This document shows positions 5,310-33,730 of a stretch of 64,000 nucleotides of DNA, one piece after another. Numbering within the stretch: position 1 is the stretch's first letter; each line of letters opens with the position of its first letter. The notes under the pieces are model-generated. The model ran no database searches. It had not been told where the DNA came from and saw only the letters and a list, made by a program, of their open reading frames with translations. This DNA is from Bacilli bacterium (lineage in GTDB: Bacteria; Bacillota_I; Bacilli_A; RF39; UBA660), in NCBI GenBank assembly GCA_017441065.1, contig JAFSAI010000037.1, positions 6,065-70,064 of the forward strand, in the 5' to 3' direction. Both the position numbers and the translations under genes were made by a program.

Positions 5310-7680
5310 TATTTTAAATAAAATAATTTTATTGCTAATGGTAATTAGCATTTATTTTATTTCATTTGAACATGTATTATTAAAAACAACAACAATATGG
5401 TTATTAGCAATTTGTTTGTGTTTAGTCAACATATTTATATTTAAAGAAAGTTATAATTATAAAGCAAAAGGCTTAAAATATTTTGTTATATTAGATATTA
5501 TCTTGATAATTTTGTCTTTATTTTCTCAAAATATATTTATATCATTTAAATTTATAATTTTATTTTCTAGCGCTATATTTATTTTTGGCTATTTAAATGA
5601 CAAAATTAAATTATATGATTTTTTTCTTAAGTTAATAGTTTTTTTTAGTAATATATATGCTTATATTACAATATTATCTGTTTTTTTTAAAGAACAATAT
5701 TTTTCTTTAATCAATTTTTTATTTTCTGATAATAGAGTAGAAATTATAACAGGGTTATATAATCAAAAGTGTTTTTCGGGAATTGCTGGACAAACCGGAA
5801 GCAATTCTGTATTAATAACGATAGGATTATTAGCAATAATTGTTTTGATTTTATACAAAAAGAGTAATAAAATAGGGAGAAACCTTTATCGATATTTTTC
5901 TTTATTAATACTTATTGCGGGATTATTATTGAGTAATAAGAGATTCATAACAATTATTGTTGTGTTTTTATCATTATTAATTATTTTTATTTATTCCAAA
6001 AATAAAAATAAAAAAGAGAATATAAAAGTATTTTTAGTGTATACTATGACTCTTTTATATGCTGCATTTTTATTAATTTGTTTTAGCGATACTTTTGCTT
6101 TAGTCTCTAGATCTTTAGGATATGTTCAAAACGAAAATTCCCAAAACTTGGGAAATTCTAATCAAAATAATGATAAGAATGAAGAAAATGGTATTTTAGA
6201 ATTAGAATCTGAAGATATAATTGATAATGTATTAAATGGTAGAATAGAATTATATGAAGAAGCTATTATAATATTTAAAGAAAATCCAGTTGTAGGAATT
6301 GGATTGGATAATTATACTCATATTAATAATATTCAAACACACAATTCAATTTTACAACTGTTATCAGAAACAGGCATTATTGGAACTATGTCAATAATCA
6401 CAGTATTATGTTATGTTTTATTTATAACATTAATAAATATAAAAAAATACAAAGATGATAAAGAATACAATTATATTTATTTATATGCATTTATTGGGGA
6501 ATTATTAATATTGACTTATTCATTAACTGGAAATCCATTTCATGATTTTAATCAAAGAAATTTTTATTTCATAATGATAGCTTTCTTATTTGGAATAATA
6601 GAAAATAGTAACAAACAAAAAAAAGAAATAGGAATTTTAACTTTTCATGCTTCGCAAAATTATGGAGCAGTGCTACAAGCTTATGCGCTGAACAAAAAAT
6701 TAGGTAGTAAATGTGAAATTATTAATTATTATAGTAAACCAGTTTACGATTATTATTCGCCTTTCAGTGTAAAAAAATATGGTGGATTAAGTTTAAAGAA
6801 TATTTTAAAAACGATTTATAAACTACCATATAATTTGATTAGATTATTTGTATTTAATGATTTTAGATATAAATATTTGCCAAGTAGTGAAAGAATTTAT
6901 AACAAAAGAGAGTTGGAAAATTATTCAAATAATTATAAATGTTTAGTTACTGGTAGCGATCAAGTGTGGAATAGTGATATTACGAAAGAAGATTGTGATA
7001 TATATTATTTAAATTTTCAAACCGAAGCTAAAAAATATTCATATGCTGCAAGTATAGGTAAAAATAGTATTAATATTAATGAAGAAAAAATCTTAAAAAA
7101 AATATCTCAAGAATATCATAGTATTACTGTTAGAGAAGAAAGATTGCAAACAATTTTAAGCGACTTAAAAATAAAATCAGAGGTAGTTGTAGATCCTACT
7201 TTATTATTAACAAAAAACGAATGGGAAGAAATTGCTTCTAAAAATGAAATAAGTAAAGATTATATTTTTGTTTATGCTTTAGAAGAAACAAAAGAATTTA
7301 TTAATGTAGTAAATGCGGCTTCAAATAAATATAATTTGCCAATTGTTCATTTAGGAAATAAAAAATTATTTGAAAATGTATTATTAAATAATTATAAAGC
7401 AAGCCCAAATGAGTTTATAACACTTTTGAAAAATGCAAAATATGTAGTAACAAATTCTTTTCATGGCACAGTGTTTTCGATAATTTTTAACAAAAATTTC
7501 ATTTCTGTACCTCATACTACTAGAAGCGTAAGACAAGAAAACTTATTAGAAAGGGTAAATTTAAAAGAACATTTAACTACAAATGTAGAAGTATTAAAAA
7601 ACAATTATAAAGAAGTTAATATGGATAAGTTAAGAGAAGGTTCAATTAAGTTTATTGAAAAAATAAAAGATTATGAATAG
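5287..7680 (+). CDS. Fusion protein: Wzy/O-antigen-ligase-like polymerase (N-terminal, about 10 TM) plus polysaccharide pyruvyl transferase (C-terminal)
   Basis: The N-terminal half is polytopic and carries the Wzy_C-like loop NGRIELYEEAIIIFKENPVVGIGLDNY...HNSILQLLSETGIIG. From about aa 455, IGILTFHASQNYGAVLQAYAL...VVTNSFHGTVFSIIFNKNF is typical of the pyruvyl transferase family. Confidence 0.7.
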   Translation: MERKEINNILNKIILLLMVISIYFISFEHVLLKTTTIWLLAICLCLVNIFIFKESYNYKAKGLKYFVILDIILIILSLFSQNIFISFKFIILFSSAIFIFGYLNDKIKLYDFFLKLIVFFSNIYAYITILSVFFKEQYFSLINFLFSDNRVEIITGLYNQKCFSGIAGQTGSNSVLITIGLLAIIVLILYKKSNKIGRNLYRYFSLLILIAGLLLSNKRFITIIVVFLSLLIIFIYSKNKNKKENIKVFLVYTMTLLYAAFLLICFSDTFALVSRSLGYVQNENSQNLGNSNQNNDKNEENGILELESEDIIDNVLNGRIELYEEAIIIFKENPVVGIGLDNYTHINNIQTHNSILQLLSETGIIGTMSIITVLCYVLFITLINIKKYKDDKEYNYIYLYAFIGELLILTYSLTGNPFHDFNQRNFYFIMIAFLFGIIENSNKQKKEIGILTFHASQNYGAVLQAYALNKKLGSKCEIINYYSKPVYDYYSPFSVKKYGGLSLKNILKTIYKLPYNLIRLFVFNDFRYKYLPSSERIYNKRELENYSNNYKCLVTGSDQVWNSDITKEDCDIYYLNFQTEAKKYSYAASIGKNSININEEKILKKISQEYHSITVREERLQTILSDLKIKSEVVVDPTLLLTKNEWEEIASKNEISKDYIFVYALEETKEFINVVNAASNKYNLPIVHLGNKKLFENVLLNNYKASPNEFITLLKNAKYVVTNSFHGTVFSIIFNKNFISVPHTTRSVRQENLLERVNLKEHLTTNVEVLKNNYKEVNMDKLREGSIKFIEKIKDYE

Positions 7681-14655: not shown

Positions 14656-17142
14656 ATGCAAGAAATATTAAAAAGAATAGAAGATTATGCATTAGAAGAA
14701 ATAATGGGTGAAAGATTTGCATCATATGCTAAAGAAATTATTCAAGATAGAGCAATACCAGATGTAAGAGATGGTCTTAAACCTGTTCAAAGAAGAATTC
14801 TTTATGCAATGTATAATGCAAATAATACATATGATAAAAAATATATTAAGAGTGCAGCGACTGTTGGAGATGTTTTAGGTAAATACCATCCACATGGCGA
14901 TTCATCTGTTTACGATGCAATGGTTCGTATGAGTCAATGGTGGAAACAAAATGCCATTCTTGTTGATATGAAAGGTAACAATGGTTCAATGGATGGTGAT
15001 AGTGCTGCGGCATATCGTTATACTGAAGCAAGACTTTCAAAAATAAGCAATGAATTATTATGTGACTTAGAAAAAGAAACTGTTGAATGGGCACCTAACT
15101 TTGATGATAGAATGCTTGAACCAACAGTGTTACCTGCTAAATTTCCAAATTTACTTGTAAATGGAACAATGGGAATAAGTGCAGGATATGCTACAAATAT
15201 ACCTCCACATAATTTAGGTGAAATAATTGATGCTACAATAAAAAGAATTGATTCACCTAATTGTTATTTAGATTCTATTTTAGAAATTGTCATAGGACCA
15301 GATTTTCCAACTGGTGGAATAGTTGAAGGAAAAAATGGTATAAGAGAAGCTTTCAAAACTGGTAAGGGTAGAGTAATAGTTAAATCTAAATATGAAATAG
15401 TTAAAGAAAAAGGAAAAGAAAAAATAATTATTTCTGAAATACCTTTTGATGTTAATAAAGCATTACTTGTTAACAAAATTGATGCGATAAGAATTGATAA
15501 GAAAATTGATGGCATGGCTGAAGTTAGAGATGAATCTGACCGTGAAGGATTAAGAATTGCAATTGATTTAAAAAGTGGTGCAAATAGTGAAATTATACTT
15601 AACTATTTACTTAAAAATACAGATTTACAAATATCATATAATTACAATATGGTTGCTATAGTAAATCGTTGTCCTAAAACTTTAGGAATTTTAGAAATAC
15701 TAGATGCATACATTGCTCATCAAAGAGATGTAATACTTAAAAGAACAAAATTTGATTTAAGAGTTAAAGAAAAAAGATTACATATAGTAGATGGTTTAAT
15801 AAAATGTATTTCAATATTAGATGAAGTAATAAAGGTTATTAGAGCAAGTAAAAATAAAGGAGATGCTAAAAATAATTTAGTAGATAAATTTGGTTTTACT
15901 TTAGAACAAGCAGAAGCAATAGTAAGTTTACAATTATATAGACTTACAAATACAGATGTAGTTGCATTAGAAGAAGAAATGGAATTACTTCGTAAATTAA
16001 TTGAAGGCCTTAAAGCTATTTTAAGTGATGAAGAAGCATTGAAATATGTTATGAAGAAAGAATTAAAAATTTTAAAGAAAGAATATGCTATTCCAAGAAA
16101 AACACAAATAGTTGATGAAATAACAGAAATAAAATTAGATTTAACAAGTATGATTCAAAAAGAAAATGTTCATGTAGTAGTAACTAATGAAGGTTATGTA
16201 AAAAGAGTATCGACAAAATCATTTAATTCATCTGATGGAGATACATTACTTAAACCTGGAGATTATATAACTAATTTATTTGAAACTTCTACTTTAGATA
16301 ATTTAGTATTATTTACAAATTTAGGGAATTATTTATTCATACCAGTTTATAAAATATTTGAAGCAAAATGGAAAGAACTGGGTAAACATATTAGTAATAT
16401 AGTGCCACTTCAAGAAGGAGAAAGACTAGTTGCATCATTTATTTTAGAGGAAGATACAACATTAACTTTATTTACAAAAAATGGTATGGTTAAAAATATT
16501 TTAATGCAAGATTTAATTGTTACAAGATATAGTAAAACAATGACTGCAATTAAATTAAAAGAAGATGATGAATTAGTAAATGTATCAAATAGTGATAACG
16601 AAACATTAATTATTACAAAAAATGGATATTATTTAAGATATAATACTGAAGAAATACCGGTAGTTGGTCCAAAAGCTAGTGGTGTTAAAGGAATTAATTT
16701 ATCAGATGATGAAGTAATATATGGTGGTAATATAAATGAAGCAAGTGAATATTTAGATATATTTACAAATAACAATACTGCTAAAAGAGTAAAACTTACT
16801 GATTTAAAATCACTTTCTAGAGCTAAAAAAGGTAATATGTTAATTAAGAAAAATAAAACAGTTACTTACTCAATTGTTAATGCTTATATTACAAATGCAA
16901 GAGATACAATTATCATAAAAAGTGATAGTGAAATAAAAGAAATAAAAAATAGCGAAATACCTATAATGGACTTAGCTAGTAATGGAAGTAGTATAGGTAA
17001 AGGTCATATTGATAAGTTTGATTTAAAATATAATATTATTACTTCAATAAAAAAAGATGAAGATAAAGAGATAAAAAAGGAAGTAAAAGAAAAAGATAAA
17101 CAAGTATCTTTTGAAGATTTTGCTAAAGACTTTAAGTTATAA
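14656..17142 (+). CDS. parC: DNA topoisomerase IV subunit A
   Basis: LEEIMGERFASYAKEIIQDRAIPDVRDGLKPVQRRILY and MVRMSQWWK match ParC rather than GyrA (GyrA has PVHRRILY and MAQDF). I saw no GyrA-box (QRRGGKG) in the C-terminal domain. Confidence 0.8.
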   Translation: MQEILKRIEDYALEEIMGERFASYAKEIIQDRAIPDVRDGLKPVQRRILYAMYNANNTYDKKYIKSAATVGDVLGKYHPHGDSSVYDAMVRMSQWWKQNAILVDMKGNNGSMDGDSAAAYRYTEARLSKISNELLCDLEKETVEWAPNFDDRMLEPTVLPAKFPNLLVNGTMGISAGYATNIPPHNLGEIIDATIKRIDSPNCYLDSILEIVIGPDFPTGGIVEGKNGIREAFKTGKGRVIVKSKYEIVKEKGKEKIIISEIPFDVNKALLVNKIDAIRIDKKIDGMAEVRDESDREGLRIAIDLKSGANSEIILNYLLKNTDLQISYNYNMVAIVNRCPKTLGILEILDAYIAHQRDVILKRTKFDLRVKEKRLHIVDGLIKCISILDEVIKVIRASKNKGDAKNNLVDKFGFTLEQAEAIVSLQLYRLTNTDVVALEEEMELLRKLIEGLKAILSDEEALKYVMKKELKILKKEYAIPRKTQIVDEITEIKLDLTSMIQKENVHVVVTNEGYVKRVSTKSFNSSDGDTLLKPGDYITNLFETSTLDNLVLFTNLGNYLFIPVYKIFEAKWKELGKHISNIVPLQEGERLVASFILEEDTTLTLFTKNGMVKNILMQDLIVTRYSKTMTAIKLKEDDELVNVSNSDNETLIITKNGYYLRYNTEEIPVVGPKASGVKGINLSDDEVIYGGNINEASEYLDIFTNNNTAKRVKLTDLKSLSRAKKGNMLIKKNKTVTYSIVNAYITNARDTIIIKSDSEIKEIKNSEIPIMDLASNGSSIGKGHIDKFDLKYNIITSIKKDEDKEIKKEVKEKDKQVSFEDFAKDFKL

Positions 17143-17146
17143 TAAA

Positions 17147-17182
17147 ATCACCTAGTAACATATAATATACTAGGTGATTTTT
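17147..17182 (+). terminator. Terminator after parC
   Basis: An 11-bp stem atcacctagta/tactaggtgat followed by a T-run. The 3' arm contains AGGTGA, which is the only RBS-like element for the next gene. Confidence 0.65.
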
Positions 17183-17183
17183 C

Positions 17184-17543
17184 ATGAGTAAAAAAGAAGA
17201 ATTTAAAGAATTTATTAGAAACAAACCAGAACTGGTGGAATATATAAAAAATGATGAAATGACAATGCAAAAATTTTATGAAATTTACGATGTTTATGGT
17301 ACGGATGAGAATGCTTGGAAAGCCTATGAAAGAAAAAATGATACTTCAAATAATTTAAATAATTTTAAATTAACAGATATTATGAAAAAAATAAATGTTG
17401 ATGAATTACAAAAACATATTAATACTGCTCAAAAAGCTTTAGGGGTAGTAGAAGACCTAACTAGTAAAGGTACTAATACTATTAATAATGCTATAAAAGG
17501 ACCTTTATCAAGTAGACCTTTAAATAAATTTTTTGAGGATTAA
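17184..17543 (+). CDS. YlbD-like putative spore coat protein
   Basis: EEFKEFIRNKPELVEYIKN...FYEIYDVYGTDENAWKAY...RPLNKFFED parallels B. subtilis YlbD (EEFKTFVKKHPGL...YEEWYLLGEDDAVWEPY...HPFSFRKD). Confidence 0.65.
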   Translation: MSKKEEFKEFIRNKPELVEYIKNDEMTMQKFYEIYDVYGTDENAWKAYERKNDTSNNLNNFKLTDIMKKINVDELQKHINTAQKALGVVEDLTSKGTNTINNAIKGPLSSRPLNKFFED

Positions 17544-17544
17544 T

Positions 17545-17766
17545 ATGGAATATTTTTTGCAAGAAAAATATAATGAAGATAAAAAATTCAAAAAATATTT
17601 AGATGAAAATTCTAACTATATAAAGTATTTAAATCGTAATCCGGAAACATATAAAAATTTTATTAAAGAAATGAAAGAATTATATAAAGAAAGAACAAGT
17701 GACAAAATTAATGATGCAATAAACACTATTGATATTGTTAGTTCAATATTAGGAACTTTACAATAA
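17545..17766 (+). CDS. YlbE-like protein
   Basis: I chose the ATG at 17545, 5 nt after GAGGA, instead of the listed TTG at 17533. KYLNRNPETYKNFIKEMKELY resembles YlbE (RRLSRNP...FQIEALNYF). It follows the ylbD-like gene, as in Bacillus. Confidence 0.55.
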   Translation: MEYFLQEKYNEDKKFKKYLDENSNYIKYLNRNPETYKNFIKEMKELYKERTSDKINDAINTIDIVSSILGTLQ

Positions 17767-17796
17767 TAAATGTCGAAAAATAGCTTACGAAAAAAG

Positions 17797-17825
17797 TTTA
17801 CAATCCATATACATTATGATTAAAT
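17797..17825 (+). promoter_or_regulatory. Promoter of the small-peptide (toxin-like) transcript, locus 1
   Basis: TTTACA (17797-802), a 17-nt spacer, then an extended -10 TGaTTAAAT (17817-25). Confidence 0.45.
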
Positions 17826-17911
17826 GAATATGGAAGTGTTGAATATGGCGTCGCTTAAGAACTAACTTAACGGGGAGGTAGTATTGATCCTGAAAAGGAG
17901 GTGATGAGCGT

Positions 17912-18016
17912 ATGAAAGTGAAAACCCTAAACAAGTTTTTATTAGTAATAATAATATTAATGTTACTGATTGTATTAGTAATAGAAATAAAAAACGCCAT
18001 TCTAGTATTAAAATAG
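17912..18016 (+). CDS. 34-aa hydrophobic peptide, candidate type I toxin (MKVKTLNKFLLVIIILMLLIVLVIEIKNAILVLK)
   Basis: Not in the ORF track because it is under 60 aa. A strong SD AAAGGAGGTGA sits 7 nt upstream. The peptide has a single TM helix and is a homologue of the peptide at 33499..33597, with the same flanking RNA architecture. Confidence 0.5.
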   Translation: MKVKTLNKFLLVIIILMLLIVLVIEIKNAILVLK

Positions 18017-18061
18017 AATAGCGCTGCTTAAAAATTTAGGCGACGTGAAATTCACGCTTCC
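17989..18061 (-). ncRNA. Candidate cis-antisense sRNA (antitoxin-like) overlapping the 3' end of the 34-aa ORF
   Basis: The minus-strand promoter is TTGTAT (18097-18092), a 17-nt spacer, then TATACT (18074-18069). The minus-strand terminator is cgctattcta/tagaatggcg (18023-17995) followed by U6. That stem has a G-U pair on the minus strand but a C-A mismatch on the plus strand. Confidence 0.45.
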
Positions 18062-18121
18062 TAAGAAGAGTATATTATAAGTTAGAATAATATACAAGTA
18101 TATTTGGTAGATAAAATATTC

Positions 18122-18144
18122 AAGAATGAGAAATCATTCTTTTT
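18122..18144 (+). terminator. Terminator of the plus-strand small-peptide transcript
   Basis: aagaatga/tcattctt 8-bp stem, GAAA loop, then a T-run. Confidence 0.55.
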
Positions 18145-18200
18145 ATATTGTATTTTAAATTTTTAAGTGATATATTATCTCTTGCGAAAGAAGATGTATT

Positions 18201-18731
18201 ATGAATATCATAGCAGGCCTCAGTGTCTCATACATTTATTGCATAATTAATAATATACTTATAATAAATAGTGTTATAAAAAAATTATATAAACGTGGTT
18301 TTATAGTTGAGTTTGATTTAAAAAATCCAAAATTAAAGAAATTTATTTTAAAAGAAATAATTATAAATATTATACCTATTTTAAATATGTTACAGTCTTT
18401 AAAAGTTACTGTAAATTATATGAATAACGAAAGTGGATTAATCAAAGATGTAGAAGAAATTGGAACTACCAAAAAAGTTTCTTATTGGGAACAAAGTCAC
18501 ACTAAAAGAAAAAGTACATCATTAGGAATTATTTATAATCATCTAAAATATAAAAAAATGATGAAAAGAACTAAAAATAATGATTTAATAAGTCTTGATA
18601 TAAATACAGATAATATAGAACCTGTAAAATCATCAGACGATTTTATAATAAGTGATCAGTCTATAGAGGCTTTAGAATATGATGAACTAAAATTAGTTAG
18701 AAAGAAAAAGAATAAGCCAAAACATAAATAA
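18201..18731 (+). CDS. Hypothetical protein (hydrophobic N-terminus, lysine-rich C-terminus)
   Basis: 176-aa ORF with a weak RBS and no motif I recognise. Confidence 0.4.
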   Translation: MNIIAGLSVSYIYCIINNILIINSVIKKLYKRGFIVEFDLKNPKLKKFILKEIIINIIPILNMLQSLKVTVNYMNNESGLIKDVEEIGTTKKVSYWEQSHTKRKSTSLGIIYNHLKYKKMMKRTKNNDLISLDINTDNIEPVKSSDDFIISDQSIEALEYDELKLVRKKKNKPKHK

Positions 18732-18736
18732 ATTGC

Positions 18737-19279
18737 TTATTCTTTTATTAAGTAATCGTTAATACCATATTTTTCTTCGTTAGGATCAAAAAATAGTTCT
18801 AATCTGGGTGTTTTATAAGTTAAATAACCCATGATAATGTAAGTTAATAAAATAAGAATAATACTTATAATACGTTGATTTTTTATTTCCTTAGCTTGTA
18901 ACATTTTAATACCAATTAAGTTAACTATAACTATTGTTATTAACATAACTGAAATAGAAATAAACATATTTTCACCAAATATATAGTAAAGTGGTAAAAA
19001 CATTAATAAATATATAGGAATACTTCCAATAGCTTTTATAAAAGAAGTTAATAAAAAATTATGATTATCAATATCAAATTTTTTCATTATAAAATATTCA
19101 ATTACTCCATACATTAAAATAGTAGTATAAAGCATTTTCATATGTTCCCAAATACTTTCATTAACCGGGAAAAATATTGAAAAAACAGGATTTGGAAACC
19201 ACTCATATATAAAATGGCTTAAAAAACATAAGAGAAATGTACCAATAACATTAATAAAAAACATTTTTTTAAGACTCAT
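18737..19279 (-). CDS. DUF6512-like polytopic membrane protein
   Basis: HFIYEWFPNPVFSIFFPVNESIWEHMKMLY matches the conserved PVNES-WEH signature of this family. About 5 TM segments. Confidence 0.55.
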   Translation of the reverse strand: MSLKKMFFINVIGTFLLCFLSHFIYEWFPNPVFSIFFPVNESIWEHMKMLYTTILMYGVIEYFIMKKFDIDNHNFLLTSFIKAIGSIPIYLLMFLPLYYIFGENMFISISVMLITIVIVNLIGIKMLQAKEIKNQRIISIILILLTYIIMGYLTYKTPRLELFFDPNEEKYGINDYLIKE

Positions 19280-33401: not shown

Positions 33402-33430
33402 TTGTTATCAAAACAAATGTTTGGTATAAT
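33402..33430 (+). promoter_or_regulatory. Promoter of the small-peptide (toxin-like) transcript, locus 2
   Basis: TTGTTA (33402-07), a 17-nt spacer, then an extended -10 TGgTATAAT (33422-30). Confidence 0.55.
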
Positions 33431-33498
33431 AATTTTGGAACGTTTTAGTAGCTAGGTGCTTACCAGCTTTAATTTATTAAAGTGGATTGGAGGTGGCT

Positions 33499-33597
33499 AT
33501 GAGTAAGAAAGATTTTATAATCCTATTACTATTCATAATAATATTTTCTCTTATTCTTATTATATTAGAGATTATAAAAAAAGCACCATCCCTATAG
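33499..33597 (+). CDS. 32-aa hydrophobic peptide, candidate type I toxin (MSKKDFIILLLFIIIFSLILIILEIIKKAPSL)
   Basis: Not in the ORF track. SD GGAGGTGG lies 3 nt upstream. The peptide has a single TM helix and shares the C-terminal (L/I)EI(I)K(K/N)A motif and flanking RNA features with the 17912..18016 peptide. Confidence 0.5.
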   Translation: MSKKDFIILLLFIIIFSLILIILEIIKKAPSL

Positions 33598-33650
33598 GAT
33601 AGTGCACCGCAAACCGGTAAGCACTTAGCATCTTCATACTAAAGTGTTCC
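33576..33650 (-). ncRNA. Candidate cis-antisense sRNA (antitoxin-like), locus 2
   Basis: The minus-strand terminator is gcactatcc/ggatggtgc (33605-33583) followed by U7 (33582-33576), again with G-U on the minus strand and C-A on the plus strand. The upstream promoter is weak or ambiguous (TAAAAT or TAGTAT as -10 candidates), so the 5' end is uncertain. Confidence 0.35.
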
Positions 33651-33730
33651 TTTTTTATTTTATGAAGATTTTTTCTTCATATTCATAATAACATAAAAGC
33701 GACTTATTAACAAGTCGCTTTAATTATCAA

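Follow-up and report, generated by a model that had tools for sequence, protein, structure and literature searches.

Do a hydrophobic peptide of 34 amino acids and a small RNA facing it on the opposite strand form a toxin–antitoxin pair? The question is raised by a locus in a stretch of 64,000 nucleotides (nt) from a Bacilli bacterium (GTDB lineage Bacteria; Bacillota_I; Bacilli_A; RF39; UBA660), namely positions 6,065 to 70,064 of the forward strand of contig JAFSAI010000037.1 in assembly GCA_017441065.1; this whole stretch is called the window, and all positions are counted from its first letter. An earlier note, made from the letters alone, had described positions 17797-18144 as a module resembling type I toxin–antitoxin systems. 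That architecture is supported by a coding open reading frame (ORF), a conserved antisense promoter and antisense hairpins, co-evolving RNA arms, a patchy multicopy distribution, and the presence or absence of the cassette as a unit. We judge it likely that the cassette is one copy of a genus-specific, multicopy type I toxin–antitoxin system with a layout like that of bsrG/SR4.

The genome comprises 1.21 Mb in 44 contigs, and the 348-bp stretch singled out by the note has about nine full and several partial copies in it. When positions 17000-19000 were compared with the genome by blastn, homology between copies began at about 17771 and stopped at 18144; the repeat unit therefore coincides exactly with the proposed module. 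The whole repeated cassette measures about 375 bp and is common to all paralogous copies. The plus-strand promoter, the leader of about 80 nt, the strong Shine–Dalgarno sequence (SD), the ORF and the terminator that the note had listed could all be read where it had placed them, and so could its minus-strand promoter (18097-18069) and its hairpin followed by six U (18023-17989). The features, with the evidence for each, are as follows.

17771-18144, plus strand: repeated cassette (blastn between copies; a ~380-bp insertion in the closest relative at the site between the ylbE-like and DUF6512 genes).
17797-17825, plus strand: predicted promoter of the peptide mRNA, with TTTACA (-35, 17797-17802), a 17-nt spacer and TG-a-TTAAAT (17817-17825) (sequence, alignment).
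17832-17858, plus strand: 5'-terminal arm of a predicted long-range helix (P1-like), GGAAGUGUUGAAUAUGGCGUCGCUUAA (minimum-free-energy fold, co-evolution).
17871-17903, plus strand: conserved G-rich box CGGGGAGG (AGGGGG in relatives), small hairpin and SD (alignment, fold).
17895-17903, plus strand: SD, AAGGAGGTG / AAGGAGGUG (sequence).
17912-18016, plus strand: ORF of the 34-aa peptide MKVKTLNKFLLVIIILMLLIVLVIEIKNAILVLK (ORF list, homologues, ratio of nonsynonymous to synonymous substitution rates, dN/dS).
17984-18062, minus strand: predicted antisense (antitoxin) RNA of ~75-80 nt (fold, RNAalifold, covariance model R1).
17989-18023, minus strand: predicted intrinsic terminator of the antisense RNA, with a 10-12-bp stem (18023-17995) and U6 (17994-17989) (sequence, fold, compensatory changes).
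18036-18062, plus strand: arm of the long-range helix in the 3' untranslated region (3'UTR), predicted target of the antisense 5' half (fold, co-evolution).
18069-18097, minus strand: predicted antisense promoter, with TTGTAT (18097-18092), a 17-nt spacer and TATACT (18074-18069) (sequence, conservation).
18122-18144, plus strand: predicted terminator of the peptide mRNA, AGAATGA / gaaa / TCATTCT followed by a T-run (sequence, fold).

We first consider the peptide. Its basic N-terminus is followed by about 18 apolar residues in a row and a short charged C-terminal tail, and it is presumed to be a single-pass membrane toxin. All 81 homologous ORFs that were collected are intact, with 31-39 codons each except for one shortened to 25, and the family consensus reads MK(A/V)KTLNKFLLVIIILLL..IL.DK.KD.V..VI. 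Length changes of the ORF keep the frame, and one paralogue carries an in-frame 3-nt deletion. Coding tests were confined to the first 22 codons, the part outside the antisense overlap: column entropy at the three codon positions was 0.90/0.47/1.23, and pairwise dN/dS was 0.28 in frame, compared with 0.64 and 1.9 in the two shifted frames. On this comparative evidence the ORF is shown to be coding and under purifying selection. The earlier note had made its reading depend on conservation of the ORF in related genomes, and there the ORF is indeed kept.

A profile search of 1.84 billion protein representatives returned 15 matches only, all of them unnamed and most of them 50-75 aa long; the longer versions mean that a wrong upstream start was called, creating a false N-terminal extension. 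The profile gave no match to the N-termini of long proteins, its matches at E < 1e-3 lying in open frames of at most 97 aa.

On the plus strand, the -35 box TTTACA/TTTACT is almost invariant in the cross-species alignment. A regular expression of TTTAC[AT] with a -10 box recovered the promoter in 53 of the 73 copies with enough flanking sequence, the remainder having other -35 boxes. The plus-strand terminator occurs as compensated variants in paralogues, such as AGAATAG-taat-CTATTCT, and is formed in the minimum-free-energy fold.

The antisense RNA is predicted to run from 5'-AGGAAG through hairpin 1 (CGUGAAUUUCACG), GUCGCCUAA and a linker to the terminator hairpin and its U-run. It lies convergent to the mRNA and covers part of the 3'UTR and the last 9 codons of the ORF, which ends at 18016. 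In 61 of 63 non-redundant copies a minus-strand -10 box (TATACT, TATAAT or TACAAT) stands 6-11 nt upstream of the conserved AGGAAG (or AGGGAC), and the stretch that separates the -10 box from the -35 box is free to vary. RNAalifold, applied to 43 diverged copies, returned the 5' hairpin and the terminator hairpin with double compensatory changes at all 13 predicted pairs. The window's antisense RNA folds with -25.5 kcal/mol (z = -5.0), and covariance model R1, which represents the antisense RNA, detected 14 copies in the genome, every one of them facing a peptide ORF in convergent orientation. Alignment of the copies shows that the antisense promoter and hairpins are conserved, and we infer that both transcripts, mRNA and antisense RNA, exist. 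No Rfam family matched positions 17600-18300 even at E up to 10.

The earlier note had also proposed that the terminator stem is built for the antisense strand, since the stem position C17998/A18020 reads as a C-A mismatch in RNA from the plus strand but as a G-U pair in RNA from the minus strand. This asymmetry is present and holds across the family: the minus-strand terminator hairpin is the more stable one in 41 copies and the plus-strand version in 21 (mean -15.7 vs -14.0 kcal/mol, p = 1e-4), and in hairpin 1 the minus strand is favoured by 35 to 25. The strand-specific G-U design is real but modest, and lends the note's argument modest support.

Beside the antisense promoter, positions 18063-18121 are 97-99% identical among nine paralogues, which exceeds the identity of the ORF. 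This segment spans the promoter and the 24 nt upstream of its -35 box, possibly an UP element or a regulator site. Its plus-strand RNA contains a 9-bp hairpin (TATATTATA/TAATATATA).

The mRNA itself appears to be closed by a long-range helix. Folding of both RNAs, which the earlier note had suggested, gave -81.9 kcal/mol (z = -7.3) for the window mRNA, and its first 27 nt (17832-17858) pair with 18036-18062. The note had pointed to the complementarity of cgtcgcttaa (17849-58) with ttaggcgacg (18036-45); that pairing is recovered, and the fold extends it from 10 bp to about 27 nt. By partition function, 15-23 long-range pairs were predicted in 52 of 52 homologues tested. Cognate 5' and 3' arms average -29.2 kcal/mol, compared with -20.1 kcal/mol for non-cognate arms of dissimilar copies (p = 3e-13) and -11.8 kcal/mol for shuffled arms. 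The helix core CGYCRCC occurs as CGTCGCC/GGCGACG, CGTCACC/GGTGACG, CGCCGCC/GGCGGCG, CGCCACC/GGTGGCG, TGTCACC/GGTGACA, CATCGCC/GGCGATG and CGTTGCC/GGCAACG, and the outer GGAAG/CTTCC pair switches jointly to GGGCAC/GTCCC. These matched variants show, at the level of sequence, that the two arms co-evolve.

The 3' arm has its exact complement in the antisense RNA, and the 5' end of the mRNA is a near-copy of the antisense 5' end. It follows that the mRNA 5' end mimics the 5' end of the putative antitoxin and that the two must compete for one site. The earlier note had predicted such competition for the 3'UTR site of the 5' element, and the co-evolution of the arms together with the exact complementarity now speaks for it.

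What displacement of the 5' arm would do to translation was predicted thermodynamically. The SD is not fully open in the free mRNA: its probability of being unpaired is 0.43 in the window copy. When the antisense footprint is blocked, the mean unpaired probability of the SD falls from 0.26 to 0.13 (p = 3e-6), and the first 34 nt of the mRNA then take up about 77% of the SD pairing; if the 5' arm is shuffled, 0.32 is obtained (p = 5e-9). For the subfamily to which the window copy belongs, the released CGUCGCUUA is predicted to pair with UGAGCG.UAU over the spacer and start codon, and accessibility of the AUG drops from 0.82 to 0.13. The model suggests that the freed 5' arm would sequester the SD.

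Taken together, these results suggest the following mechanism. The plus-strand promoter would produce an mRNA of about 310 nt for the 34-aa single-pass membrane peptide, the presumed toxin. Its first ~27 nt would pair with the 3'UTR segment about 20 nt past the stop codon to form a panhandle that also hides the 5' end. The convergent promoter would produce the antisense RNA of ~75-80 nt, perfectly complementary to the 3'UTR segment, the linker and the last 9 codons. Its binding would create a duplex of about 75 bp, a candidate RNase III substrate, and drive out the mRNA's 5' arm; once released, this C-rich segment (CGYCRCC) would then fold onto the ribosome-binding site (RBS) and also block translation. 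Duplex-triggered decay is feasible because the genome has a gene for RNase III, and the enzyme would presumably cleave this duplex. The peptide, for its part, would be toxic.

This design has a close precedent in bsrG/SR4 of the Bacillus subtilis SPbeta prophage (related: bsrE/SR5 and yonT/SR6), where, as here, a small hydrophobic peptide (BsrG, 38 aa) is paired with a convergent antisense RNA overlapping its 3' end. Helix P1 of bsrG, which has been mapped experimentally, joins nt 1-35 of the mRNA to nt 232-262, a segment that directly precedes the terminator (PMC3834814). Binding of SR4 opens helix P1, leaves bsrG nt 1-33 unpaired and lengthens the SD helix from 4 bp to 8 bp; SR4 promotes decay of the bsrG mRNA and blocks its translation, and RNase III degrades the duplex (PMC3834814). 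The convergent arrangement over the ORF 3' end and 3'UTR is found in all 14 genome copies of the present cassette, and a helix whose 3' arm lies inside the antisense target is predicted in 52 of 52 homologues. Because the 3'UTR arm is the antisense target, the design matches helix P1 displaced by SR4 and is bsrG-like rather than new.

Differences from bsrG/SR4 are nevertheless clear. SR4 has 183 nt and a non-complementary 5' stem-loop, whereas the antisense RNA here is predicted to have ~75-80 nt and to be fully complementary. The first 33 nt of bsrG stay single-stranded after displacement, whereas here the displaced 5' arm is a predicted anti-SD. bsrG/SR4 resides on a prophage, while the present cassette lies in the chromosome, reaches up to ~15 copies per 1.2 Mb and also occurs in tandem arrays. 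The peptide family is also unrelated and lacks detectable similarity to any catalogued family: none was found between the peptide profile and BsrG, Fst/Ldr, TxpA, Hok, TisB, Ibs, ShoB or the other catalogued type I toxin families. As read from the sequence, the family is new but of a known kind, and its regulatory design (bsrG-type) is likewise known.

Other systems share parts of the layout. The B. subtilis pair txpA/RatA and the Clostridioides difficile modules (CD2517.1-RCd8 and relatives) are convergent with a 3' overlap, and their toxins lack homology to other families (PMC6563280). As here, the overlap and long complementarity suggest duplex-triggered decay; those toxins have 50-59 aa, compared with 31-39 aa for the peptides here, and what sets the present cassette apart is the co-evolving 5'/3' panhandle at its centre. 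A 5'/3' interaction of the toxin mRNA also governs activity in hok/sok of Escherichia coli plasmid R1 and aapA1/IsoA1 of Helicobacter pylori, where metastable or alternative folds control access to the SD. In those systems the mRNA is kept inactive by the interaction until its 3' end is trimmed, and the antisense RNA targets the 5' region. In the present cassette the antisense RNA would bind the 3' arm of this interaction instead. Fst/RNA II (par of pAD1, Enterococcus faecalis) combines a hydrophobic toxin of ~33 aa with a short convergent antisense RNA, the two RNAs interacting near their terminators; they have one common bidirectional terminator and pair through 5' direct repeats over the RBS. 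Convergent transcription of a small hydrophobic peptide and a short antisense RNA in a Firmicute is shared with the present cassette, whereas here each RNA has a separate predicted terminator, the repeat is inverted, and the mRNA 5' end is a mimic of the antitoxin, not its pairing partner. The peptide gave no match to the Fst family at E up to 10.

We then assessed how the cassette is distributed. The earlier note had proposed a search for further copies; peptide profile A1 found 14-15 in the genome, among them those of a diverged subfamily (contigs C18, C27, C36 and C2), and covariance model R1 found 14. Within the genus, the profile matched 32 of the 42 genomes; copy number per genome ranges from 0 to ~15, and tandem arrays are frequent. 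It matched none of 179 other genera in the class sample; model R1 found no copy in 149 other genera of the family. Phage and plasmid collections gave no DNA match to the cassette. The insertion site is informative: in several species of the genus only 0-26 nt separate the ylbE-like gene from the DUF6512 gene, whereas one cassette occupies this site here and in the closest relative, a tandem of three is found in a further species, and yet another species has a degenerate copy. In the closest relative exactly the ~380-bp unit is inserted, and this copy resembles a different paralogue of the window's genome, which implies exchange between sites.

Several further observations concern this site and the copies. 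Compared across loci L217-L236, the region corresponding to window 17767-18736 is a hotspot that, depending on the species of the genus, holds nothing, one to three cassettes, a minus-strand XRE-like gene of ~150 aa, or unrelated genes. The 176-aa ORF at 18201-18731 is not at this site in the closest relative, and in loci L225 and L226 of two species (genomes G022 and G011; ~620-880) about 260 nt of unassigned sequence lie between the ylbE-like and DUF6512 genes without a match to the peptide profile. In the paralogue C13 (C13:5833-6013 of the window's genome, G000), the promoter and 5'UTR are lost, and the ATG is joined immediately to the beginning of another cassette (TGTCGAAAAATGACACACGAAATTAATTTACA). 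This has the appearance of a recombination between cassettes, which would leave an ORF without the P1 arm and SD.

The distribution bears directly on the strongest alternative, namely that the peptide, a small membrane protein, serves the cell in an ordinary way, for instance by regulating or assisting membrane or surface proteins, and that a cis-antisense RNA adjusts its expression outside any toxin–antitoxin relationship. Coding and antisense evidence by itself does not show toxicity, and directly downstream of 9 of the 14 copies in this genome stands the TTGACT-G8/9-TATACT promoter of a family of variable surface proteins, a hint of a functional link. That link, however, is specific to this genome: the corresponding figure elsewhere is 6 of 67 copies. 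An obligate association with the poly-G surface-protein genes was rejected on these counts; the proximity is a local co-duplication and not a requirement. The patchiness of the family (absent from 10 of 42 genus genomes), its 0 to ~15 copies, its tandem arrays and its gain and loss at a fixed site are typical of selfish toxin–antitoxin cassettes and not of a housekeeping gene, and an mRNA locked in the manner of bsrG suggests that a harmful product is kept tightly repressed. We regard a normal role as rather unlikely on this balance.

The pattern of identity among paralogues raises a second alternative. Within the genome the antisense promoter is 98.6% identical, the 3' arm 93%, the ORF 78% and the linker 46%, so that the antisense promoter and RNA 5' half are the most conserved parts; moreover, the cassette terminator sits just before the poly-G promoters. 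The minus-strand RNA could on these grounds be the main product, acting in trans (for example on surface-protein mRNAs), or the cassette could be a transcriptional insulator before phase-variable genes, with the peptide secondary. We consider this very improbable: the ORF is under purifying selection, the mRNA 5' arm co-evolves with the antisense target, which ties the function of the RNA to its own mRNA, and solo and tandem copies without a downstream surface-protein gene exist. Scarcely credible, finally, is a non-coding repeat with an incidental ORF, perhaps a remnant signal anchor; the cassette is multicopy, a 27-nt imperfect inverted repeat flanks the ORF, and copies often lie at contig ends next to repeated surface-protein genes, but the in-frame dN/dS, the intact ORFs, the in-frame length changes and a conserved SD indicate a coding sequence, the inverted repeats are internal (17832-58 and 18036-62), with neither terminal repeats nor target duplications seen at the cassette edges, the profile misses the N-termini of long proteins, and most copies in other species lie away from surface-protein genes. 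Both versions of this idea, an element like a miniature inverted-repeat transposable element (MITE) and a decayed stub of a surface-protein gene, were rejected because of the coding selection and the internal position of the repeats.

The toxin–antitoxin reading has to be set against several observations that weigh against it. A consensus scanner listed neither the plus-strand nor the minus-strand promoter and no terminator at the cassette, the latter because the stems are AT-rich, and both promoters are moderate consensus matches only. The DNA has a G+C content of 26%, and promoter-like sites in it were no commoner than in shuffles (16 vs 16.7); a single copy alone thus proves nothing, and the support comes from conservation across more than 60 diverged copies. 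The plus-strand terminator was not found in tandem arrays of other species. No toxin family for the peptide was found in Pfam or NCBIfam (E up to 10) or in PHROGs or PADLOC (E up to 1), in agreement with the remark of the earlier note that the peptide resembles no family it could name. By eye there is no clean covariation of the 5' arm with the RBS across subfamilies, so the anti-SD step stays a thermodynamic prediction. Furthermore, about ten paralogues have a nearly identical antisense 5' half, and a second subfamily (contigs C18, C27 and C36) has a different one; the antisense RNAs of the ten would probably cross-neutralise, which weakens a simple role in addiction at each locus.

If the type I toxin–antitoxin reading holds, the cassette adds a predicted, hitherto unannotated family from an uncultured small-genome lineage of gut Bacilli, and its density in the genus, about 14 copies per 1.2 Mb, would to our knowledge be among the highest known. 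The more than 60 diverged variants also lend covariation support to a bsrG-type 5'/3' helix, which for bsrG itself rests mainly on structure probing at one locus, and natural variants with matched arm pairs could provide ready-made orthogonal RNA switches. For annotation, the results mean that gene callers overlook these 105-nt ORFs and their RNAs or place the starts wrongly.

A more speculative joint reading can be put forward, one that we think doubtful. The 5' arm might act as a three-way switch, open when paired with the 3'UTR and closed when paired with the RBS, with the antitoxin RNA, a mimic of the arm's sequence, deciding between the two by strand displacement. The paralogues might form cross-protecting networks which, physically joined to and co-duplicated here with the poly-G phase-variable surface-protein genes, could stabilise those recombination-prone loci against deletion.

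Regarding the neighbouring surface-protein genes, the promoter TTGACT-TC-G(8-9)-TAATA-TATACT precedes paralogous membrane-anchored surface-protein genes (MQVVNKKMCVIVILVLVIIESC...) at C25:330-450, C1:73100-73225, C31:24230-24350 and other places in G000, each time downstream of a paralogous cassette. The poly-G run lies within the spacer between -35 and -10 and has 8 or 9 G depending on the copy, and contigs often end there. The same promoter design also follows cassettes in four or five other species (L047, L048, L175, L186, L200 and L210).

Elsewhere in the window, positions 33402-33660 hold a second cassette of the same design that is unrelated in sequence and undetected by peptide profile A1 and model R1. 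It has a peptide, MSKKDFIILLLFIIIFSLILIILEIIKKAPSL, a minus-strand hairpin with a U-run over the ORF end, and an mRNA 5' end (GGAACGTTTTAGTAGCTAGGTGCTTACCAG) near-complementary to a 3'UTR segment (CCGGTAAGCACTTAGCATCTTCATACTAAAGTGTTCC). On the minus strand at 53729-53854, the window matches the Rfam family DUF3800-I RNA (RF02969) with 64 bits, above the gathering score.

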